Shown here piece by piece: positions 3,186-62,112 of a stretch of 64,000 nt of DNA. The notes under the pieces are model-generated. The model was not told where the DNA came from and did no database searches. It worked only from the letters and a program-made list of their open reading frames with translations. Each line of letters opens with the position of its first letter. The stretch's first letter is position 1. The translations under genes and the position numbers were made by a program. The stretch lies in the sequence record PV295200.1. The stretch is one strand, 5' to 3'. Source of the DNA: Escherichia phage vB_Eco_BCPEco_001.

Positions 3186-5164
3186 TGTGATATAGGCTCC
3201 AAATCGATAGTTAAGTATTGCGGACGTAAATCATTTTCAAATACAATCAGTGAACCATCACGGGTAAAGATAACATCATCGGTTGGGTCAGAATATAATT
3301 CAATAGTCTGAACCTCAAATTTTTCAGATGTTAAATTAATTTTAGCGATATTCCAATAAATCATGTCAGTCGGATAATTTATTTCACCGATAACATAGTA
3401 TTTGTCGCGTCCATCAGAATTTGCTAATTTATTAAAATCATTGCCTGTATATGGCTGAATGTTTTCATTTTCTGTAACATCGCCAGAAGCAAATGGACCA
3501 ATAATAACTTTACCAATTCCTTTAGAATCTCGGTCTGTTGATACTATACGAACATCATATAATACATCTTCTTCTAAACCAGTATCAGGATTTACAACCT
3601 TTCGTCCAGAATTAAATGAAAACGTATTAGATTCCATAGAACGATCTTTTATTTGATTATTATATTTAATACCCGCTTCAGGCGTTTTATAGAAGTTTTG
3701 TACTTCACGAACCATTTGAATAGTCGCTGATGAACCAATGACAGAATGATCTGCATCATCTACATATGTCAACATCTTAGATTTAGCGAAAGACGAGTTA
3801 AAAATTTCTACATCTTCGGTATAATAGCGATCAATTTTATCAATTATTTGACCTTCAAGCCACTGTTCGGATTCTTGCAGCTTATTTAAAGCATATGTGA
3901 CTTTTAAATTAGTCTTAATAAAAAGGTAATTAGGAGAAATAATTGATGGTGTAATAGGAGCTAAATTATAGTCTTTGAGATAATTTTTAATATCTTCACG
4001 CTGTACGGTAGTTAAATACAGACCTGATTTAGGTTTAGCAGCAATAAATGCATACCCAGGTTTAGTAGAATCAGTGAAAGTTTGAACAGCTTGAATAATA
4101 GAACCAAATCTCTCTGAAACGAATGTATCATAGTCAGTCGCAGTTACGCATCGTTGCTGGGTTTCGCGTTTAATAGTACCCAATTCGCGAATACGCTCAA
4201 TATCTTCTGGATCACCGCCTCCATCTGCCCCAACAAAATCTGGGTCACCGTTTGGATTTTCATTAATATTGATGACAGTTATATTTGTTAATGTGTCTGC
4301 GTATGAAAATCCGACTGCTCCGTTCGCGTCAGCACCATTAGTACTAATGTACTCAATAACAATCGTAGAGTTCTGAGTAGGTTTAAGACCTCCAATATAA
4401 TTAGCAGTCAAAGCTCCTTCAGAAGCATTAACAGAAATTTCACCTTCACCAAAATAGAATTCAGTGTTTCCATCAATAGTTTCACGCATATAGTAAATCG
4501 TTGATGTTGAACCAGCATGAACCATTGACTTTCTCGTCCAGTTAATCCATTCCGCTCCATCAACATATAATTTAACCTGGTTTCTATCAATATTTTTATC
4601 ATAAATGATAATAGGTGTTAATTTATCATAAATGATTTCAGTTCTTACTATACGTCCCTGGGCCAATTTTAAACGTGGAAAATATTGGTTATTTTTATCA
4701 CGAATAGCAATAACGTCTTCGGTAGAAACGAAGTTATATGGATTAACAGAAGTATCTTTTGCATATGCTAAAAAGCGAGTTCCGCGAGGAATTGTAATGT
4801 AATTCCTATTCAATGCGTCGGTGCATGTTAACATAATTTCGGTTTGCGCAGCGGATTTTGAAGTAGGTAAATATCCGTTATCTTGTGCAGCTTGAACAAC
4901 TGAGCTTCGTAAGTTAGCAGTACGCATAAAGCTTTCATATACAGCAGCATTACCAAACTGCTGAATGTACAGCGTATTATAAGCCAAAAGGTCACACAGA
5001 ACGTTTAATCTTGAGCCTTCAAAATCATAATCCAAAAATTCATTTTGGCCATTAAGCCATTCAATGAGGTTTTGTTTTATTTCAGCAAACGTACCCCCGA
5101 CGAATATCTCGGGAATAGCATTTGCTGTTCTTGTTAATTGATAATTTACAGGGGTATTTGCCAT
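3182..5164 (-). CDS. 6: baseplate wedge protein gp6
   Basis: 660 aa ORF, same length as T4 gp6; ATGA overlap with gene 7. Confidence 0.85.
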   Translation of the reverse strand: MANTPVNYQLTRTANAIPEIFVGGTFAEIKQNLIEWLNGQNEFLDYDFEGSRLNVLCDLLAYNTLYIQQFGNAAVYESFMRTANLRSSVVQAAQDNGYLPTSKSAAQTEIMLTCTDALNRNYITIPRGTRFLAYAKDTSVNPYNFVSTEDVIAIRDKNNQYFPRLKLAQGRIVRTEIIYDKLTPIIIYDKNIDRNQVKLYVDGAEWINWTRKSMVHAGSTSTIYYMRETIDGNTEFYFGEGEISVNASEGALTANYIGGLKPTQNSTIVIEYISTNGADANGAVGFSYADTLTNITVININENPNGDPDFVGADGGGDPEDIERIRELGTIKRETQQRCVTATDYDTFVSERFGSIIQAVQTFTDSTKPGYAFIAAKPKSGLYLTTVQREDIKNYLKDYNLAPITPSIISPNYLFIKTNLKVTYALNKLQESEQWLEGQIIDKIDRYYTEDVEIFNSSFAKSKMLTYVDDADHSVIGSSATIQMVREVQNFYKTPEAGIKYNNQIKDRSMESNTFSFNSGRKVVNPDTGLEEDVLYDVRIVSTDRDSKGIGKVIIGPFASGDVTENENIQPYTGNDFNKLANSDGRDKYYVIGEINYPTDMIYWNIAKINLTSEKFEVQTIELYSDPTDDVIFTRDGSLIVFENDLRPQYLTIDLEPISQ

Positions 5165-12355: not shown

Positions 12356-12613
12356 ATGAAAACTTTCAAAGAGTTTGCTACAAAAACTACTATCACTGAA
12401 TCTTCCCACGGTATGGAAGTAAAGCTTGGAATGGCTTTAGCTGAAGCTGAGCGTCTTTTCTCTCGTATTAAAGAACTTGCTGCTGCGGTCGATCCTTCAT
12501 CTTTTAAAGGAGACCAAACTAAAGTTAAAGCACTTTTAGCATTATGCTCCGATGCAGGAGAAATTGCTAAAAATGGTTCTAAGATGAAGAAACGATTAGA
12601 AGATTTAAAATAA
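12356..12613 (+). CDS. internal protein (ipI-like) with capsid targeting sequence
   Basis: 85 aa; N-terminal MKTFKEFATKTTITE resembles the T4 internal-protein capsid targeting sequence MKTYQEFIAE with an LxE-type cleavage site; own early promoter. Confidence 0.65.
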   Translation: MKTFKEFATKTTITESSHGMEVKLGMALAEAERLFSRIKELAAAVDPSSFKGDQTKVKALLALCSDAGEIAKNGSKMKKRLEDLK

Positions 12614-12655
12614 TTTCACAAAGTTGTTTACATAGGGTTTTAGTTGTGATACTAT
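12612..12655 (+). promoter_or_regulatory. early promoter, near-identical repeat of the 12282 promoter
   Basis: taatttcacaaagttgtttacatagggttttagttgtgatactattaccct; -35 and -10 spaced 17 nt. Confidence 0.6.
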
Positions 12656-12689
12656 TACCCTATCAAAACAAAACCAAATGGAAATCAAA

Positions 12690-12923
12690 ATGAAAACTTT
12701 CAAAGAGTTTATCGCTGAAACTGCTGATGTAAAAGTTGAGTTTATTTACACTGGCAAGAAAGATAAAATGGGTGAAATGCCTCATGGAGTTCTTCGTGAT
12801 GCATTAGATAATTTCGGTCAACTCGCCGCAGAAGATTACGGTGATAAAATTGTTGTTACTGGTCCTGCTGCAGTTATTGAAAAATGGGCAGCAGAAAATA
12901 AATCAATTTTTCGTAAAAAATAA
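12690..12923 (+). CDS. internal protein (ip-like) with capsid targeting sequence
   Basis: 77 aa from MKTFKEFIAE TADVKVE...; a possible 4-codon extension (MEIKM) would start at 12678. Confidence 0.65.
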   Translation: MKTFKEFIAETADVKVEFIYTGKKDKMGEMPHGVLRDALDNFGQLAAEDYGDKIVVTGPAAVIEKWAAENKSIFRKK

Positions 12924-12953
12924 GTTTACTTTTAGATGGGGTAGTGATACTAT
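12910..12953 (+). promoter_or_regulatory. early promoter, third copy of the hairpin-embedded -10 module
   Basis: gtttacttttagatggggtagtgatactattaccctatc. Confidence 0.5.
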
Positions 12954-19964: not shown

Positions 19965-20023
19965 AGTTGTTTACTTTCTCCTAGAATTGTGATAGTATAT
20001 TCACAGTTACTTGGAGGGATAAA

Positions 20024-22582: not shown

Positions 22583-22611
22583 TTTACTTTTCCTCTTGAC
22601 TGTGGTATAAT
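22583..22611 (+). promoter_or_regulatory. early promoter (-35 GTTTAC, extended -10 TGTGGTATAAT) upstream of regB
   Basis: tgtttacttttcctcttgactgtggtataat. Confidence 0.55.
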
Positions 22612-23107: not shown

Positions 23108-23653
23108 ATGAGAAAAGCACTACTCGCTGGTCTATTGGCCATTTCAATGATGGCACATAGCTCCGAGCATACTTTCAGTAATGTCCAACTCGATAACATG
23201 CGTTACGCGTATCAATTCGGGGAACAATTTTCTAAGGATGGAAAATATAAAACACACAAAAACATCCACAAGAGTGGATTAGGTCATATAATGGCAGCCA
23301 TTTTATGGCAAGAAAGCTCTGGCGGAGTTAATTTAAAATCTAAACCAAAGCATCACGCCTACGGAATGTTCCAAAATTATTTGCCTACTATGCGAGCGAG
23401 AGTTAAGGAACTTGGTTATAATATGACCGATGCTGAAATAAAAAGAATGTTGAATAAACGATCCAATTCAGCTTCCTGGGCGTACATTGAACTTTCTTAT
23501 TGGTTAAATATACATAAGGGCGATATAAGAAAAGCAATATCCTCTTATAATTCGGGATGGAATGTTAAAGCAGGTTCTAAATATGCTTCTGAAGTCCTAG
23601 AAAAGGCTAATTACCTTAAAAATAATAAACTTTTGGAAATAGTAAATGACTAA
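23108..23653 (+). CDS. secreted protein, possibly lytic transglycosylase-like
   Basis: 181 aa; N-terminal signal peptide MRKALLAGLLAISMMAHS; motif ILWQESSGG is weakly suggestive of a transglycosylase catalytic Glu. Confidence 0.45.
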   Translation: MRKALLAGLLAISMMAHSSEHTFSNVQLDNMRYAYQFGEQFSKDGKYKTHKNIHKSGLGHIMAAILWQESSGGVNLKSKPKHHAYGMFQNYLPTMRARVKELGYNMTDAEIKRMLNKRSNSASWAYIELSYWLNIHKGDIRKAISSYNSGWNVKAGSKYASEVLEKANYLKNNKLLEIVND

Positions 23654-23987
23654 AATTTTGGTTTTATGTATAGGATTAATTTCATTTTCTGCGTTAGCAG
23701 ATACATCATATACTGAAATTAGAGAGTATGTAAACCGTACTGCAGCGGATTATTGCGGGAAAAATAAAGCATGCCAAGCTGAATTTGCGCAGAAATTAAT
23801 ATATGCATATAAAGACGGAGAAAGAGATAAATCAAGCAGATACAAAAATGATACATTGTTAAAACGATATGCTAAAAAGTGGAATACCTTAGAATGTTCA
23901 GTTGCGGAGGAGAAAGATAAAGCCGCTTGTCATTCAATGGTTGACCGTTTAGTAGATTCTTATAATCGAGGATTGAGTACTAGATGA
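23646..23987 (+). CDS. secreted hypothetical protein (position of T4 vs)
   Basis: 113 aa with signal peptide; 4 Cys. Confidence 0.45.
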   Translation: MTKILVLCIGLISFSALADTSYTEIREYVNRTAADYCGKNKACQAEFAQKLIYAYKDGERDKSSRYKNDTLLKRYAKKWNTLECSVAEEKDKAACHSMVDRLVDSYNRGLSTR

Positions 23988-24463
23988 TTGTAAAATATAT
24001 CAAGGGCGATATTGTCGCCCTATTTCTTCAAGGTAATATTATTGCGCACGGGTGCAATTGCTTCCACACAATGGGCTCTGGCGTAGCAGGTCAATTAGCA
24101 AGAGCCTATCCCAAAATTTTAGAAATAGATAAAACCACTACCGAGTACGGTTCTCGTGATAAATTAGGCGATATGTCTATTGTTTTTAAACATAGTCCTA
24201 CGGGATTTGGTATATGCTATAACCTGTATACACAATACGAACCGGGTCCTAATCTTGATTATGGTGCTTTAGTAAACTGCATGATAGAATTAAATCTACA
24301 GGCAGAAACCCTTTTGTTTAAACCAGTAATTTACATTCCACGCATAGGTTGCGGTATTGCTGGCGGCGATTGGGATAAGGTTTCTAAATTAATCGACATG
24401 TTTACTCCTGATATTGATTTAATAGTGGTGGATTATGAAAGTACATTACCCGCATCCGTTTGA
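23984..24463 (+). CDS. macro-domain protein (predicted ADP-ribose binding/hydrolysing)
   Basis: 159 aa; KGDIVALFLQGNIIAHGCNCFHTMGSGVAGQLARAYP fits the macro-domain pattern (GDI...h-h-N-x-N...G-x-GV-A). Confidence 0.55.
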   Translation: MIVKYIKGDIVALFLQGNIIAHGCNCFHTMGSGVAGQLARAYPKILEIDKTTTEYGSRDKLGDMSIVFKHSPTGFGICYNLYTQYEPGPNLDYGALVNCMIELNLQAETLLFKPVIYIPRIGCGIAGGDWDKVSKLIDMFTPDIDLIVVDYESTLPASV

Positions 24464-24647
24464 TCCTAAAAACAAAGTGGAAATTATTCGTCAATGGGAA
24501 CGCATTTGCCGTACTAAATGCCCAATTAATAGTCCACATGATGTAGATAAAGACTATATTGGAACATTCGTTGAATATACCTTTATTGATAGGAAAGGTC
24601 GTAAACAACATGTAGAAGAATATTGTTTAAAGGTTACATGGTTATGA
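24435..24647 (+). CDS. hypothetical protein
   Basis: 70 aa ORF overlapping the upstream gene end. Confidence 0.4.
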   Translation: MKVHYPHPFDPKNKVEIIRQWERICRTKCPINSPHDVDKDYIGTFVEYTFIDRKGRKQHVEEYCLKVTWL

Positions 24648-24850
24648 GCCAAACTAGTATTCTTAAAAATGCCCACTGCGAAAAGTGTGAATGGCCAGTT
24701 GTTTTTGCTTTATGTAATGATGAAATGGCTTGTGATTTCGATTATTGGTGCTATTGTTCTAATAAAGGATGCATCAATCATAAAGGTGAAGGATTTTATT
24801 CAGGATTTTATCCTTATCCTGATTTCGTTAAAGAAGGTAAACCGAAATGA
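24644..24850 (+). CDS. small Cys-rich protein (putative zinc-binding)
   Basis: 68 aa from MSQTSILK; 8 Cys incl. CEKCEW and CYCSNKGC; ATGA-coupled. Confidence 0.4.
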   Translation: MSQTSILKNAHCEKCEWPVVFALCNDEMACDFDYWCYCSNKGCINHKGEGFYSGFYPYPDFVKEGKPK

Positions 24851-25020
24851 ATAGTTTTGAGTTACAATATGAAGTGTTACGTGAGCTTGATAATTTAATT
24901 GAACTCGCTGTCAATAAAGGTTTTGCCATTGGAATCGGTCAAAAAGATACTGGTCATTTAACTATGGAAATATTTAAGCAAAAGCGAATTATTTTAAAAC
25001 TCCTGGAAATTAATATATGA
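24847..25020 (+). CDS. hypothetical small protein
   Basis: 57 aa ORF MNSFELQYEVLRELDNL..., ATGA-coupled on both sides; below the track length cutoff. Confidence 0.35.
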   Translation: MNSFELQYEVLRELDNLIELAVNKGFAIGIGQKDTGHLTMEIFKQKRIILKLLEINI

Positions 25021-25202
25021 GTCTGAGTAAAGAACAAAAAGATAAATTGTTTGAGCTTATCCATGAACTTCTAGATGAGCATACAGAAGCAAACACCTTT
25101 TATGATGAATACGGCCCGCTATCTCCCGAACAGCAAGAAGAATTTGCTGATCGGTTTGATAAGAAAGAAAACGAATTAATAGCTTATGTGAATATGCTTT
25201 AA
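25017..25202 (+). CDS. hypothetical acidic protein
   Basis: 61 aa. Confidence 0.4.
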   Translation: MSLSKEQKDKLFELIHELLDEHTEANTFYDEYGPLSPEQQEEFADRFDKKENELIAYVNML

Positions 25203-25211
25203 GAAGGTGAT

Positions 25212-25793
25212 ATGGCGAGTTTAATTTTTACTTACGCAGCAATGAATGCTGGAAAATCTGCTTCTCTTTTGACTGCTGCACATAATTATAAAGAACGCGG
25301 AATGGGTGTATTAGTTCTTAAGCCTGCTATTGATACTCGCGATTCTGTCTGTGAAGTCGTTTCTCGCATTGGAATTAAGCAGGAAGCGAATATTATTACG
25401 GATGATATGGATATTTTTGAGTTCTATAAATGGGCTGAAGCACAAAAAGATATTCATTGTGTATTTGTAGATGAAGCCCAGTTTTTAAAAACTAAACAGG
25501 TGCATCAATTAAGCCGAATTGTTGATACATATAATGTTCCTGTTATGGCTTATGGACTAAGGACTGATTTCGCTGGAAAATTATTTGAAGGTTCTAAAGA
25601 ACTTTTGGCGATTGCAGATAAACTTATTGAACTAAAGGCAGTTTGTCATTGTGGTAAAAAGGCTATTATGACAGCTCGATTAATGGAAGATGGAACACCG
25701 GTTAAAGAAGGTAATCAAATCTGTATTGGTGATGAAATTTATGTTTCTTTGTGTAGAAAACATTGGAATGAATTAACTAAAAAGCTCGGTTAG
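25212..25793 (+). CDS. tk: thymidine kinase
   Basis: 193 aa; P-loop AMNAGKS; C-terminal zinc ribbon CHCGKK...C; matches T4 Tk size. Confidence 0.9.
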   Translation: MASLIFTYAAMNAGKSASLLTAAHNYKERGMGVLVLKPAIDTRDSVCEVVSRIGIKQEANIITDDMDIFEFYKWAEAQKDIHCVFVDEAQFLKTKQVHQLSRIVDTYNVPVMAYGLRTDFAGKLFEGSKELLAIADKLIELKAVCHCGKKAIMTARLMEDGTPVKEGNQICIGDEIYVSLCRKHWNELTKKLG

Positions 25794-37008: not shown

Positions 37009-37938
37009 ATGAAAACTCGTAAACATTATATTGATTATTTTGACAGTCTTATTACTAAACATCGTGATTATCAGATAGGACACAGAGCAGTAATCAATAA
37101 TATTCTTCGTGATTTCCTTCAGTATGTTGGCCAGGAAAATCATATCTGTAAAGATACTCAGAACGCTTATTCTCATTCGTTAGGCAATTTACTTGAATGG
37201 TTTAAACGTTCTCGTATGTTATCTTCTACTGTAGCTCGTGATAACATTGAAAACTTTATGAAGCCGAGCTTCATTAAATCTGCGACATCTATAACCGATT
37301 TGGTTGAATTTACTATTGTTAACGATGTTAAAAAGACCCATTTGGCTGATTGGTTATCTACCATTCCCGAAACTAAATTTGCTGATAAATTCGCTTGTCA
37401 ATTCAATGACCAAGTGAATATGCTTTTTAAGCATGCTCGTAAACTATTTACCGCGGGCGATGACCGTACAAATACAGTTCATGTTAAGGATTGGGTTATT
37501 GCTGATGAAGTAACACACAAGCCAGGTGGTTCATCAGTATTAATTAATATCCAGGTTCCTTATTATTACTCACGTAATCTCGGCACCATGACAGCTAGAG
37601 AAATTAATAAGCACAACAAAATTATTCGTTCGTTGTCTTATAAACTCTGCACGATGGTGGAGATGATGGACGTAGTGGAAATGTATGACGAAACCGAAGA
37701 TAATGGTTCAATGCTGTACAGTTCACGCATTCTAATTAAACTGAAGAACCCTAATACATATAAGCAAGTTGTAAAAGAACCTAAAGCAGAAAAGGCTGAT
37801 AATCTGAGTGAAGAACGCGAATATCTCAATGCTCGTTTGATTGAAGTTGAAGCCCAAATTGCAGAACACACCAAATTGTTAAAAGCTCTTAATGCAAAAG
37901 CAAATGGTTTACGCAATGCTATTGAGGTATTGAAATGA
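37009..37938 (+). CDS. hypothetical protein with C-terminal coiled coil (family member 4)
   Basis: 309 aa; C-terminal tail [42 protein letters not shown]. Confidence 0.5.
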   Translation: MKTRKHYIDYFDSLITKHRDYQIGHRAVINNILRDFLQYVGQENHICKDTQNAYSHSLGNLLEWFKRSRMLSSTVARDNIENFMKPSFIKSATSITDLVEFTIVNDVKKTHLADWLSTIPETKFADKFACQFNDQVNMLFKHARKLFTAGDDRTNTVHVKDWVIADEVTHKPGGSSVLINIQVPYYYSRNLGTMTAREINKHNKIIRSLSYKLCTMVEMMDVVEMYDETEDNGSMLYSSRILIKLKNPNTYKQVVKEPKAEKADNLSEEREYLNARLIEVEAQIAEHTKLLKALNAKANGLRNAIEVLK

Positions 37939-47401: not shown

Positions 47402-47425
47402 AAACCAAAACAAAGAGGATATTAA

Positions 47426-48628
47426 ATGAAAGTATGTATTTTTATGGCTCGAGGTCTTGAAGGTTGCGGTGTAACTAAATTTTCTCTTGAGCAACGTGAT
47501 TGGTTCATTAAAAATGGCCATGAAGTAACTCTAGTTTATGCTAAAGATAAATCATTTACTCGTACAAGTTCTCATGACCACAAATCATTTTCAATTCCAG
47601 TTATTTTAGCTAAAGAATACGATAAAGCACTTAAACTGATTAATGATTGTGATATTTTAATTATTAATTCTGTTCCTGCTACTTCCGTTCAAGAAGCCAC
47701 GATTAATAACTATAAAAAAATTATTGATAACATTAAACCTTCAGTTCGTGTTGTAGTTTATCAACATGACCATTCTTCTCTTTCTTTGCGCCGAAATTTG
47801 GGATTAGAAGAAACTGTTCGTCGAGCTGATGTTATTTTTAGTCATTCTGATAATGGTGATTTTAATAAAGTTCTGATGAAAGAATGGTATCCAGAAACTG
47901 TTTCTTTGTTTGATGATATTGAAGAAGCACCGACTGTATACAACTTTCAGCCTCCTATGGATATTGCGAAGGTTCGATCAACCTACTGGAAAGATGTTTC
48001 TGAAATTAACATGAATGTCAACCGCTGGATTGGTCGTACGACTACATGGAAAGGTTTTTATCAGATGTTTGATTTTCACGAAAAACATCTTAAACCTGCT
48101 GGGCTAAGTACTATTATGGAAGGTCTGGAACGTTCTCCAGCGTTCATTCCTATTAAAGAAAAAGGAATTCCATATGAGTATTATCGTCTTCATCAAGTAG
48201 ACCAAATTAAAATTGCTCCTAATTTGCCAACGCAAATTCTTGACCGTTATGTAAATAGCGAAATGCTTGAACGCATGAGTAAATCTGGATTTGGTTATCA
48301 GCTGAGTAAGTTGGACAAAAAATATCTACAACGTTCTTTAGAATATACTCATCTCGAGCTTGGTGCATGTGGAACAATTCCAGTATTTTGGAAATCTACT
48401 GGCGAAAATTTAAAATTCCGTGTTGATAATACTCCGTTAATTTCTCATGATAGTGGTATCGTTTGGTTTGATGAAAATGACATGGAATCAGCATTTGAGC
48501 GTATTAAAGAACTGTCATCTGACCGAACTCTTTATGACCGTGAACGCGAAAAAGCTTATGAATTTTTGTATCAGCATCAAGATTCAAGCTTCTGCTTTAA
48601 AGAACAGTTTGACATTATTACAAAATAA
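47426..48628 (+). CDS. a-gt: DNA alpha-glucosyltransferase
   Basis: 400 aa; MKVCIFMARGLEGCGVTKFSLEQRDWFIKNGHEVTLVYAKDKSFTR is near-identical to T4 a-gt from memory; followed by the hairpin agggcttcggccct. Confidence 0.9.
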   Translation: MKVCIFMARGLEGCGVTKFSLEQRDWFIKNGHEVTLVYAKDKSFTRTSSHDHKSFSIPVILAKEYDKALKLINDCDILIINSVPATSVQEATINNYKKIIDNIKPSVRVVVYQHDHSSLSLRRNLGLEETVRRADVIFSHSDNGDFNKVLMKEWYPETVSLFDDIEEAPTVYNFQPPMDIAKVRSTYWKDVSEINMNVNRWIGRTTTWKGFYQMFDFHEKHLKPAGLSTIMEGLERSPAFIPIKEKGIPYEYYRLHQVDQIKIAPNLPTQILDRYVNSEMLERMSKSGFGYQLSKLDKKYLQRSLEYTHLELGACGTIPVFWKSTGENLKFRVDNTPLISHDSGIVWFDENDMESAFERIKELSSDRTLYDREREKAYEFLYQHQDSSFCFKEQFDIITK

Positions 48629-50084: not shown

Positions 50085-50271
50085 CATTAATGATGAATTC
50101 ATAGCAAACATTGATTATACCGAAGAAGATTCTAGATATGTTGGAATAATTTATATTACATCAAAAACAGCACAAGGTGTTGTTTGCATGGCTGAATTTG
50201 ATGAATACTTTTTAGATTATGATGATATGATAGAATGGTCTAAAAGATACATTAAAAGGAATCTTTTGTGA
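50056..50271 (+). CDS. hypothetical protein whose 5' end is repeated at the start of the downstream HNH gene
   Basis: 71 aa from an ATG (MHTVKFSTFDINDEF...); the track start 50008 is further upstream; 19-nt sequence ttgacattaatgatgaatt is repeated at 50284. Confidence 0.4.
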   Translation: MHTVKFSTFDINDEFIANIDYTEEDSRYVGIIYITSKTAQGVVCMAEFDEYFLDYDDMIEWSKRYIKRNLL

Positions 50272-51122
50272 AGAATTTTAAACTTGACATTAATGATGAA
50301 TTTTTAATAAAGGAATTAGTTGAAAAATTAGCGTTGAGTGAAGAAGACGCCAAGTCTTACATTAATTTTATTTCTATGAATTCAACTGTTAAAACTCCAG
50401 GTAAAACGGAAGCACACCACGTGCTTCCTAAATCAATATTTCCTGAATATTTAAAATCTACATGGAATTTAGTTAATTTAAGTCATTTTAATCATTTTAA
50501 AGCACACTTCTTATTAGCAAAAGGTAAAAATGGAAAAATGCTAAATGCTTTAAATAGAATGATGTCAGGGAAAACATATAAAAATTTATCTTTAGCCGAA
50601 GTTGATTTAATAGCTGCTGAATATAGTTTTATAAAACAAGATGTAAGTGACACAATATCAAAAAGGCTTCAACAGTATTATTCAAATCCGCAAAATAGAA
50701 ATGCTGCTAGAGAAAGGGCATTAAAATATTTTTCAGTAGCAAAAAATAGGAAAGATAACAAAGAAAGATTAAATAATTTTAAAACAAAACAAAAAATTTC
50801 AATGGCTTCAAGGGAATGGTTTAATAACGAAGAAAACAAAATTAAACACCAAAAGGCTGTTCGTGCTGCTTTATCAAAACCTGAATATAAAATAGCTATA
50901 TCAAATTCAGTAGCTGCTAGTTGGAAAAATCCGGAGATTAGAAAAGCTCATATAGCATCTAGACGAAAAGGCTATCATTGGGATAATAAAGATAAATTGT
51001 ATGAATTGTGGATATCATATAATCGTCCTAAACATGTGATGTTTAGGAAAATGTTAGTTAAGAATGGATATCCAATAGAGGCTTCATTACAGGCTTTAGT
51101 TAAAGAATTTTCTTCATTGTGA
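50268..51122 (+). CDS. HNH homing endonuclease, free-standing between genes 47 and 46
   Basis: 284 aa; HNH-like core KTEAHHVLPKS...NLVNLSHFNHFKAHF; basic C-terminal half; apparent GTG start; N-terminus KNFKLDINDEF repeats the upstream gene N-terminus. Confidence 0.6.
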   Translation: MKNFKLDINDEFLIKELVEKLALSEEDAKSYINFISMNSTVKTPGKTEAHHVLPKSIFPEYLKSTWNLVNLSHFNHFKAHFLLAKGKNGKMLNALNRMMSGKTYKNLSLAEVDLIAAEYSFIKQDVSDTISKRLQQYYSNPQNRNAARERALKYFSVAKNRKDNKERLNNFKTKQKISMASREWFNNEENKIKHQKAVRAALSKPEYKIAISNSVAASWKNPEIRKAHIASRRKGYHWDNKDKLYELWISYNRPKHVMFRKMLVKNGYPIEASLQALVKEFSSL

Positions 51123-59900: not shown

Positions 59901-60641
59901 ATGATTAATGACTCTATGACAGTTGAAGAAATCCGTCTTCATTTGGGGCTTGCATTAAAAGAAAAAGATTTCGTAGTTGATAAAACTGGCGTTAAAACTA
60001 TTGAAATTATTGGCGCATCATTTGTAGCAGATGAACCGTTTATTTTTGGCGCTCTTAATGATGAATACATTCAGCGTGAACTTGAATGGTATAAATCTAA
60101 GAGCTTGTTCGTTAAAGATATTCCGGGTGAAACACCGAAGATTTGGCAACAAGTAGCATCTTCTAAAGGTGAAATTAACTCGAATTATGGCTGGGCTATC
60201 TGGTCAGAAGATAACTATGCCCAGTATGATATGTGTTTAGCTGAACTTGGTCAAAATCCTGATTCTCGACGTGGTATCATGATTTATACTCGTCCATCTA
60301 TGCAGTTTGACTACAATAAAGATGGTATGTCAGATTTCATGTGTACTAATACAGTACAGTACCTGATTCGTGATAAGAAAGTCAATGCAGTTGTTAATAT
60401 GAGAAGCAATGACTGCTGGGCAGGCTATCGTAATGATTATGCATGGCAAAAATACGTACTAGATAAATTAGTATCTGATTTGAATGCAGGCGACCCATCG
60501 CGGCAATATAAAGCAGGTTCTATTATATGGAACGTTGGAAGTCTTCATGTGTACGAAAATCAGTTTTATTTAGTTGACCATTGGTGGAACACTGGTGAAA
60601 CTCATATTGCTAAAAAGGATTATACTGGAAAATGGAAGTAA
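59901..60641 (+). CDS. 42: dCMP hydroxymethylase gp42
   Basis: 246 aa as in T4 gp42; thymidylate-synthase-like fold motifs; SD GAGG. Confidence 0.9.
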   Translation: MINDSMTVEEIRLHLGLALKEKDFVVDKTGVKTIEIIGASFVADEPFIFGALNDEYIQRELEWYKSKSLFVKDIPGETPKIWQQVASSKGEINSNYGWAIWSEDNYAQYDMCLAELGQNPDSRRGIMIYTRPSMQFDYNKDGMSDFMCTNTVQYLIRDKKVNAVVNMRSNDCWAGYRNDYAWQKYVLDKLVSDLNAGDPSRQYKAGSIIWNVGSLHVYENQFYLVDHWWNTGETHIAKKDYTGKWK

Positions 60642-61273
60642 ATGTGCCACATGTTTATAAGTATAAACATCCTAAAACTAAAAAGTGGTATATAGGAAGT
60701 CATGATGGTCACAACCCAAATTATGATGGTTCGGGTGTAGTTTGGCAACATGCTAAAAAGAAATATGGAATAAAATCCTTTAATAAAGAAATATTATATG
60801 AAGGACCAATGTTTAGACAGGTTGAAGAAATTATTTTAACTTGTTTAGATGCTGCTAATTGTCCGGATTCATATAATTTAAAGAATGAAGCATGGGGAGG
60901 AAGTTTTCCAGGCAAATTAAATGGAATGTACGGTAAAAAACTATCTCCAGAAGAAAGATATAAGTGCGGAAATGCCTTTCGTGGAATCAAGCGTCCTGAT
61001 CATTCTAAAAGAATGAAAGGCGAAGGTAATCCAATGTATGGTAAAAATGAGCAGGCATATGGAATTATAAATCGAGCAAAGGAAAATTCTGGTAAAACTT
61101 ATGAAGAAATTTTTGGCGCAGAAAAAGCTAAAATAATTAAAGAAACGATGTCTAAAAATCGTAAAGGAAAACCTCATAATTTGATAGAAAAAATATGTCC
61201 GCATTGCGGACTAAAAGGACGTGGGCCAAATATGACAAGATACCATTTTGACAAATGTAAGGCACTTAAATGA
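60632..61273 (+). CDS. GIY-YIG homing endonuclease (Seg-like)
   Basis: 213 aa; KKWYIGSHDGHNPNYDGSG GIY-YIG-type N-terminus; basic C-terminus with CPHCG zinc-finger-like motif; overlaps the gene 42 end by 10 nt. Confidence 0.6.
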   Translation: MEVNVPHVYKYKHPKTKKWYIGSHDGHNPNYDGSGVVWQHAKKKYGIKSFNKEILYEGPMFRQVEEIILTCLDAANCPDSYNLKNEAWGGSFPGKLNGMYGKKLSPEERYKCGNAFRGIKRPDHSKRMKGEGNPMYGKNEQAYGIINRAKENSGKTYEEIFGAEKAKIIKETMSKNRKGKPHNLIEKICPHCGLKGRGPNMTRYHFDKCKALK

Positions 61274-62112
61274 TTCAATTCGTAATTCCAAGTTATCAGC
61301 GTGTCGGGGCAGTTTCTGCCCTTGATATGTTTCCGACTGATTATGAACCCCATATTGTAGTGCGTGAACATGAAGAAAAAGCTTATTATGATGCCTATGG
61401 GTCTAGAGCTAAAATTATAACTATTCCTGATGATGTAAACGGAATTGCCGGTACTCGTAAAGCAATTACTGATATGTATGCAGGTCAACGAATCTGGATG
61501 ATTGACGACGATACTACTATTCGTATGAGTTCAATGCGAAAAAGAGATGACCGTCGTTGCGTGGATAAAGTCAATCAATTGACTCATGAACAGTTCTATG
61601 AATTGATTCAATACGTCGAAGATGCCATGGATTGCGGGTATTATCACGGTCATGCTCGCCTACCAATTTTTAAAATTACTTCATCTTGGGGTAATTATCG
61701 TGAAAATTCATATGGATTCACGAATACATGGTATGACCTTGGAAAACTTACGACAGAACAAATTGGGTATGGAAAAATTGATTTATGCGAAGATATGTAT
61801 GCATTTCTCAATTTAATTAATCAAGGTTATCCGCATTTGGCCTTGTTCAAATATCTAGTTGTATCTGGAAAATCACACGCTCCCGGTGGATGTAGTTCAA
61901 TTCGTAGTAATTCTAAACATAATAGAGCGCTTGAGCAAATCAATAGAGAGTTTCCAGAGCAAGCTCGTTGGAAAACATCGAATATTGAAAAACGAAAATC
62001 GTTGGGTGAAGAAGACGAGCCATTAAAGGTTCTTCGCATGTGTGTTTCGCGTAAAGAAAAATCAGAAGCATTTCATAAGTTTAATGCTATTCATCCAATA
62101 GCAGTTGATTAA
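61270..62112 (+). CDS. putative DNA glycosyltransferase (GT-A fold, DxD) at the beta-gt locus
   Basis: 280 aa; IWMIDDDTTIR DxD motif; does not resemble T4 beta-gt as recalled (351 aa); sits between 42 and uvsX where T-even phages carry a DNA glucosyltransferase. Confidence 0.55.
   Translation: MIQFVIPSYQRVGAVSALDMFPTDYEPHIVVREHEEKAYYDAYGSRAKIITIPDDVNGIAGTRKAITDMYAGQRIWMIDDDTTIRMSSMRKRDDRRCVDKVNQLTHEQFYELIQYVEDAMDCGYYHGHARLPIFKITSSWGNYRENSYGFTNTWYDLGKLTTEQIGYGKIDLCEDMYAFLNLINQGYPHLALFKYLVVSGKSHAPGGCSSIRSNSKHNRALEQINREFPEQARWKTSNIEKRKSLGEEDEPLKVLRMCVSRKEKSEAFHKFNAIHPIAVD

Follow-up and report, generated by a model that had tools for sequence, protein, structure and literature searches.

A diverged allele of the T-even gene tk.4 (adfM) encodes a stand-alone macrodomain with a putative glutamine-type active site and a probable role against DarTG2

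Introduction

Directly behind vs, the gene for the valyl-tRNA synthetase modifier, Escherichia phage vB_Eco_BCPEco_001 (PV295200.1) carries an open reading frame that an initial annotation, made from the letters alone, took to be a macro-domain protein able to reverse or read ADP-ribose marks. The locus raises the question of which marks such a protein would act on, those written by the phage itself or those written by host defence, and by what chemistry. The question is addressed here within a window of 64,000 nucleotides of phage DNA, the whole of the stretch that was analysed.

Gene identity and position

In reverse orientation, the window covers T4 coordinates from about 86.2 kb to 21.8 kb and belongs to a Tequatrovirus. 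Shigella phage SHFML-11 and hundreds of other Tequatrovirus genomes share 99.3% identity with the region. The open reading frame runs from an ATG start to a TGA stop with exactly the bounds first given to it, and is closely packed between its neighbours.

23646..23987, + strand: vs (valyl-tRNA synthetase modifier), the 5' neighbour; its stop overlaps the tk.4 start (ATGA)
23984..24463, + strand: tk.4/adfM allele, a single-domain macrodomain protein of 159 aa
24435..24647, + strand: tk.3, the 3' neighbour; it overlaps the 3' end of tk.4 by 29 nt and forms the 3' crossover boundary

The gene order regB-vs.1-vs-[ORF]-tk.3...tk is the same in T4, T2 and SHFML-11, and in T4 and T2 the gene between vs and tk.3 is tk.4. 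The window protein aligns with T4 Tk.4 without gaps at 58% identity over 155 aa (E 1e-70) and matches PHROG 335 (1e-71). By position and full-length homology, the open reading frame is an allele of the T-even gene tk.4 (adfM). The overlap of the vs stop with the tk.4 ATG suggests that translation of the two genes is coupled.

Both the gene and its domain were already known, and the role has been known since late 2025. The T4 RefSeq entry for tk.4 reads "phosphatase; contains A1pp phosphatase motif", a label that dates from 2003-2006, and the A1pp (macro) domain match of tk.4 orthologues appeared in a comparative paper of 2006 (PMC1524935). In some GenBank records the allele found in the window is named "macro domain protein" or "Appr-1-p processing protein".

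Overall fold and structural class

The protein matches the Pfam Macro profile (PF01661) with 32 bits against a gathering cut-off of 22, over profile positions 2-117 of 118, and the PDB matches obtained with the single sequence as query are macrodomains throughout (BT1257, Poa1p, SCO6735, Mtb DarG and TARG1). The N-terminal signature that had first drawn attention to the gene lies as described, with KGDIV at residues 7-11 and HGCNCFHTMGSGVAG at residues 22-36. An AlphaFold2 model, for which an alignment of 78 homologues served as input, has a mean pLDDT of 94.3 and a pTM of 0.89, with disorder in the last five residues only. The predicted structure is a three-layer alpha/beta/alpha fold that can be superposed on solved macrodomains. 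Its structural neighbours, with their scores, are as follows.

BT1257 (2afc): 18.2
Mtb DarG macrodomain (5m3i): 17.4
Poa1p (6lfq): 17.3
TARG1 (2lgr): 16.5
T. africanus DarTG (7omu): 16.5
Coronavirus, alphavirus, PARP and MacroD macrodomains: 13.7 or below

Foldseek gives the top rank to ADP-ribose-bound TARG1 (7e-10). The sequence motifs, the confident model and the structural neighbours solved with ADP-ribose bound support a predicted ADP-ribose pocket that is intact. The Pfam match, motifs, model and neighbours likewise bear out the macro-domain assignment; the comparison with known macrodomains that had been proposed as its check yielded, by prediction, a fold that retains the ligand pocket.

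DarG is the sole defence-related model matched in PADLOC and NCBIfam. The NCBIfam match (NF048014) scores 27.7 bits against an equivalog cut-off of 250 and covers model positions 2-142 of 338, while the PADLOC match covers positions 3-144 of 329. Since the similarity is limited to the N-terminal macrodomain of DarG and falls far below the cut-off, the window protein is a stand-alone macrodomain of the TARG1/DarG ("ALC1-like") class. The structural class and the NCBIfam scores led us to reject assignment as a MacroD/YmdB O-acetyl-ADP-ribose deacetylase or 'RNase III regulator', names that are found in some databases.

Ligand loops and active site

Fourteen columns are invariant in the 78 homologues: H22, G23, N25, C26, G33, A35, D49, N80, Y82, Q84, P119, G122, G124 and W130. 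Most fall within two ligand loops, and one occupies the position of the catalytic residue in related enzymes.

24047..24088, + strand: first ligand loop, residues 22-35 (HGCNCFHTMGSGVA), with H22, G23, N25, C26, G33 and A35 invariant
24233..24235, + strand: Gln84, codon CAA, at the site of the catalytic Lys in TARG1 (K84) and DarG (K80) and of SCO6735 Gln85
24338..24373, + strand: second, diphosphate-binding loop, residues 119-130 (PRIGCGIAGGDW), with P119, G122, G124 and W130 invariant

The loop motifs M30-G-S-G33-V-A35 and P119-R-I-G122-C-G124-I-A-G-G128 are invariant or nearly so across the homologues, and the second loop is a near match to PRIGCGLAGGTW of SCO6735 and PRIGCGLAGGKW of BT1257. 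H22 and N25 align with SCO6735 H24 and N27, which are among the residues mutated in an earlier study (PMC9411070). N25 also aligns with N23 of PhiKZ AdfM, and the N23A mutant of that protein has reduced activity (PMC13309987).

In profile alignments Q84 corresponds to TARG1 K84, and A126 to TARG1 D125. The equivalent Gln of a cellular family member (P0094) aligns both to residue 105 of the 5e3b chain and to the Lys of the Mtb DarG "FPTK" motif. Residue 105 converts to native SCO6735 Gln85 on the assumption of a 20-residue N-terminal tag; the same offset places H24, N27, K34 and K89 on the correct amino acids, which supports the conversion. SCO6735 Gln85 sits where DarG has K80 and TARG1 has K84, the Q85A mutant is inactive, and the enzyme strips thymidine-linked ADP-ribose from DNA and protects against DarT (PMC9411070). 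Judged from these alignments, the T-even AdfM family is predicted to be of a Gln type like SCO6735 and not of the Lys type represented by DarG and PhiKZ AdfM. The HIDEN-SEQ preprint compared T4 AdfM with DarG only (bioRxiv 10.1101/2025.11.20.689424). As the catalytic Lys of DarG is absent, the proposed activity of the window protein rests on analogy with one enzyme, SCO6735, and with a Gln-type site mutagenesis and inhibitor work should aim at Q84, H22 and N25.

The conserved residues also bear on the start of the gene. In the SHFML-11 RefSeq record (NC_030953) the coding sequence, at 4072..4464 of its locus and equivalent to window 24071..24463, begins at Met30 and gives a 'phosphatase' of 130 aa. 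This start is probably wrong because residues 1-29 hold the invariant H22, G23, N25 and C26. In the AlphaFold2 model these residues are predicted as two strands and one helix with pLDDT 96-97, and with a Met30 start two conserved strands would be lost together with a portion of the ligand loop. Several database records have the truncated protein or the 'phosphatase' name, and both need correcting.

Function of the tk.4 product

In a genome-wide transposon screen of T4 on a DarTG2 host, tk.4 was the single depleted gene, and a clean deletion of tk.4 sensitises T4 to DarTG2, for which reason the gene was named adfM (anti-DarT factor Macrodomain) (bioRxiv 10.1101/2025.11.20.689424). DarTG2 ADP-ribosylates thymidine in DNA, and the authors proposed on genetic grounds that T4 AdfM removes this ADP-ribose enzymatically (bioRxiv 10.1101/2025.11.20.689424). 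An independent study found that T2 and T4 withstand DarTG2 without AdfA or AdfN (PMC11825919).

The window protein is probably an early-expressed macrodomain that hydrolyses ADP-ribosyl-thymidine in single-stranded phage DNA with the assistance of Gln84, and thereby counters DarTG2. It counts against this explanation that the T4 protein to which the phenotype belongs shares just 58% identity with the window allele, and that the T4 evidence is of a genetic kind and taken from a preprint; an anti-DarTG2 role of the window allele, like the substrate and the catalytic mechanism given here, is nevertheless the most likely. The tk.4/adfM product would be a single-domain ADP-ribosylglycohydrolase, an orphan antitoxin, expressed early from the regB-vs block. 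Once host DarTG2 is triggered, DarT2 would ADP-ribosylate thymidines in single-stranded phage DNA and so block replication; the pocket of the AdfM macrodomain would then take up the ADP-ribose, and hydrolysis of the ribose-base bond would give back normal DNA. Catalysis would most likely be of the SCO6735 type, in which Gln84, together with H22 and N25, would position the substrate and a water molecule, a mechanism that would be unlike the lysine-based one on which DarG and TARG1 rely. The window allele can now be tied to the recently assigned function of AdfM in countering DarTG2, and the unaided reading of the raw sequence had correctly singled out a counter-defence gene.

Small ADP-ribose derivatives are an unlikely alternative substrate. 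In such a case the protein would act on ADP-ribose-1''-phosphate, as Poa1p does and as the old 'A1pp phosphatase' label implies, on O-acetyl-ADP-ribose or on signalling nucleotides, with a role, equally unlikely, in the NAD+ economy of the phage or in the quenching of NAD-derived immune signals rather than in DNA repair. The N-terminal motif is indeed Poa1p-like, with H22 and T29 as the presumable counterparts, by eye, of Poa1p H23 and S30, two residues probed by mutation in the Poa1p structures, and distant family members lie beside genes for NAMPT (8/54 loci), NMNAT-Nudix (6/54) and NADAR (4/54). However, strong alignment with Poa1p is restricted to residues 3-79, its C-terminal half aligns poorly, and it has Ser, not Gln, at the key position. 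The T-even tk.4 genes do not adjoin NAD-salvage genes, no Tpt1/KptA-type source of Appr-1''-p is seen at the locus, and the phenotype of the T4 orthologue is specific to DarTG2.

T-even phages encode three ADP-ribosyltransferases, and Alt, ModA and ModB are arginine-specific. Macrodomains of the TARG1/DarG class are not known to cleave the Arg-ADP-ribose linkage. The presence of these transferases, the structural class shared with TARG1, and the ability of TARG1 and SCO6735 to cleave Glu/Asp-linked protein ADP-ribose as well (PMC9411070) could point to removal of ADP-ribose from proteins or RNA, whether the phage's own Alt/ModA/ModB marks or host-defence marks such as those of CmdT on mRNA. 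We regard this as quite unlikely: the arginine linkage lies outside the known range of the class, the DarTG2 screen gave tk.4 as its single match, and CmdTAC defends strongly against T4 despite tk.4 (PMC11618068). Because of this last observation, counter-defence against CmdTAC was rejected for the T4 allele. The suggestion that the protein reverses ADP-ribose marks is supported. Host-defence marks are favoured by the T4 tk.4 deletion genetics with DarTG2; action on the marks of Alt, ModA and ModB finds no support, since these enzymes modify arginine and the protein belongs to the TARG1/DarG/SCO6735 class. The most likely substrate remains ADP-ribosyl-thymidine in phage DNA.

Exchange of the gene between phage genera

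The difference between the window allele and that of T4 is confined to the gene itself.

24040..24440, + strand: exchanged allele core, far from T4/T2 and near Dhakavirus, with 50-64% DNA identity to T4

Through vs.3, regB, vs.1 and vs the DNA is 97-100% identical to that of T4 and T2; identity drops to 50-64% from about 24079 to 24438 and, on the 3' side of the tk.4 core, has returned to 97% by 24529. Of the 127 ORFs in common with the T4 region, only three are more divergent than tk.4, whose 58% compares with a median of 97.5%. The reverse is seen with Dhakavirus IME281, whose tk.4 is 92% identical to the window copy in protein and 87-90% in DNA, whereas its flanks reach 55-70% in DNA, and regB, vs and tk 59%, 46% and 71%, respectively, in protein. 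These opposite patterns show that exactly tk.4 has been exchanged between genera. Both cores are common in phage records (T4-type, n=385; window-type, n=335), and synonymous sites are saturated between the two alleles. Identity between the window and T4 proteins is 84% over residues 1-45, 41% over residues 46-79 and 24% over residues 131-155; in the second loop the window allele is nearer to the family consensus than the T4 allele.

Such divergence could also be expected of a protein whose main action is non-catalytic, either blocking DarT2 by binding to it ('interaction-inhibition') or reading or sequestering ADP-ribose. Co-evolution with toxin surfaces would then explain why the alleles are so far apart, and the rank of tk.4 among the shared ORFs, the swapping of alleles between genera and the concentration of variation outside the ligand loops all fit. 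Inhibition of DarT in vitro persists when the macrodomains of SCO6735, DarG and TARG1 are catalytically inactivated (PMC9411070). Nevertheless, the residues of the catalytic pocket are all invariant in the 78 homologues, which argues for selection on enzymatic activity, and the window protein is without the dedicated C-terminal DarT-binding domain of DarG. A mainly non-catalytic role is for these reasons very unlikely, and co-evolution with toxin surfaces as the source of the divergence equally so; an enzymatic AdfM is preferred.

Two further islands of divergence are present in the window. An ORF of 309 aa at 37009..37938 (+), probably nrdC.3 from its T4 coordinates, is 60% identical to its T4 counterpart and forms a gene-sized island like tk.4, and the tk.2 homologue at 25017..25202 (54%) forms a third.

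Transcription signals and a hairpin at the 5' boundary

Two sequence elements upstream of and within tk.4 may bear on its expression.

22583..22611, + strand: sigma-70-like promoter TTTACT-17-TATAAT with TG, upstream of regB, found by consensus scan
24003..24021, + strand: GC-rich 8-bp hairpin AGGGCGAU-AUU-GUCGCCCU followed by a U-rich stretch; a terminator-like match with a predicted fold

The first is a candidate early promoter of the regB-vs.1-vs-tk.4 block, although shuffled sequence yields at least as many sigma-70-like matches as the region does in total. A promoter directly 5' of tk.4 was considered and rejected, as only a TTGACC-14 nt-TATAAT arrangement is present there and the consensus scan did not flag it. 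More likely, transcripts from the regB promoter extend into tk.4, whose start would be coupled to the stop of vs.

The hairpin looks like an intrinsic terminator. It lies 20 nt into the tk.4 ORF, at the 5' crossover boundary with crossover points on both sides, and the alleles of T4, the window and Dhakavirus all carry it unchanged. One locus (L018) shows a compensatory synonymous pair within it (AAG..CUA to AAA..UUG), and three unrelated lineages (L026, L028 and L047) have different palindromes at the same codons. A fold of -11 kcal/mol or lower occurs at this site in 15 of 72 loci, mostly from one related group, compared with 2.4% of control windows; among the 72 loci compared, many lineages lack the hairpin. 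The whole 5' region does not qualify as a structured RNA, for the 91-nt fold has a z-score of -1.17 and the local hairpin alone stands out.

These elements and the exchange of alleles allow a further, rather unlikely reading, in which the tk.4 locus would be a hot-swappable counter-defence cassette and diverged AdfM alleles would circulate among T-even genera, persisting according to which ADP-ribosyltransferase they neutralise. Recombination would occur at the conserved 5' palindromic hairpin and the tk.3 junction, which we likewise consider improbable. It is similarly doubtful that the alleles differ in their targets, be these variants of DarT2 or further toxins that ADP-ribosylate nucleic acids, possibly with toxin binding acting alongside hydrolysis. 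If the cassette reading were true, the Gln-type active site would set its enzymes mechanistically apart from DarG. The two major tk.4 alleles, which have crossed genus boundaries and are each found in over 300 sequenced phages, constitute a natural experiment on whether the allele determines which DarT toxins a phage can resist, a question of relevance to predicting the host range of therapeutic T-even phages.

Other differences from T4 and gene neighbourhoods

In viral contigs L024-L084, which lack T4 synteny, members of the macrodomain family repeatedly adjoin NAD+-salvage/ADP-ribose genes; the NAMPT, NMNAT-Nudix and NADAR neighbours counted above come from 54 such loci. One of the NAMPT genes is interrupted by an insert that is probably intein-like.

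Close to tk.4, an ORF at 24623..24850 (+) lies between tk.3 and tk and encodes a Cys-rich protein of 75 aa (CEKCEW...CNDEMACDFDYWCYCSNKGCINH). In T2 an unnamed ORF, matched by position and approximate size, occupies this place; none is present in T4. Between tk.3 and tk (24648-25212) megablast gave no match to T4, and a counterpart of T4 tk.1 was not found.

Further away, an ORF of 284 aa at 50268..51122 (+) with an HNH-like motif (HHVLPKS...N..H) is inserted, relative to T4, directly upstream of gene 46 and is probably a mob-type homing endonuclease. At 60632..62112 (+) a GIY-YIG-like ORF of 213 aa ('VYKYKHPKTKKWYIGS') and an ORF of 280 aa replace T4 b-gt and segA; the 280-aa ORF may be a T2/T6-type beta-alpha-glucosyltransferase. 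At the window junction 20013..20020 the T4 ipII/ipIII segment (T4 65359-66454) is missing, and unrelated sequence at 12391..12943 replaces the ipI region; the internal-protein genes are variable here, as is usual among T-even phages. The nrdD intron with I-TevII and the mobB of T4 are absent from the window phage (40994..40997 and 47410..47435).

Comparison with known systems

Yeast Poa1p (PDB 6lfq), an ADP-ribose-1''-phosphate phosphatase, has Ser where the window protein has Gln and is weakly similar in its C-terminal half. The function of Bacteroides BT1257 (PDB 2afc/2fg1) is not known. Human TARG1/OARD1 (PDB 4j5s) has the catalytic dyad K84/D125, and the window protein has Q84/A126 at these positions.

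The DarG macrodomain (PDB 5m3i, 5m31 and 7omu) uses the catalytic Lys K80 in place of Gln84. DarG also possesses a C-terminal DarT-binding domain and its gene lies beside darT, whereas the window protein has neither feature and is an orphan with vs and tk.3 as neighbours. PhiKZ gp104, which is also called AdfM, is a stand-alone phage macrodomain that clears DNA of the ADP-ribose added by DarT2 (Cell Rep 2026, PMC13309987), and its N23 is the counterpart of N25. It nevertheless represents a separate lineage with marginal similarity to the window protein (E 0.002 over 23 residues), is of the Lys type ('FPTKDNW') and is imported into the phage nucleus (PMC13309987).

Among the cellular enzymes, S. 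coelicolor SCO6735 (PDB 5e3b) resembles the window protein in having Gln at the catalytic-Lys site, His and Asn within the first loop, and a PRIGCGxAGGxW loop that is almost identical. It too is a stand-alone macrodomain, and it is a thymidine-ADP-ribose DNA hydrolase that protects against DarT. It differs in its cellular origin, in the low identity over the whole sequence (PDB E 8.5e-8) and in its longer loop after the Gln, which carries K89, a residue that the window protein lacks. T4 Tk.4, or AdfM, is like the window protein in position, fold class and invariant residues, including Gln84, with 155 against 159 aa; its second loop has the derived form GAGIGKG, whereas that of the window protein has the family-consensus GCGIAGG.
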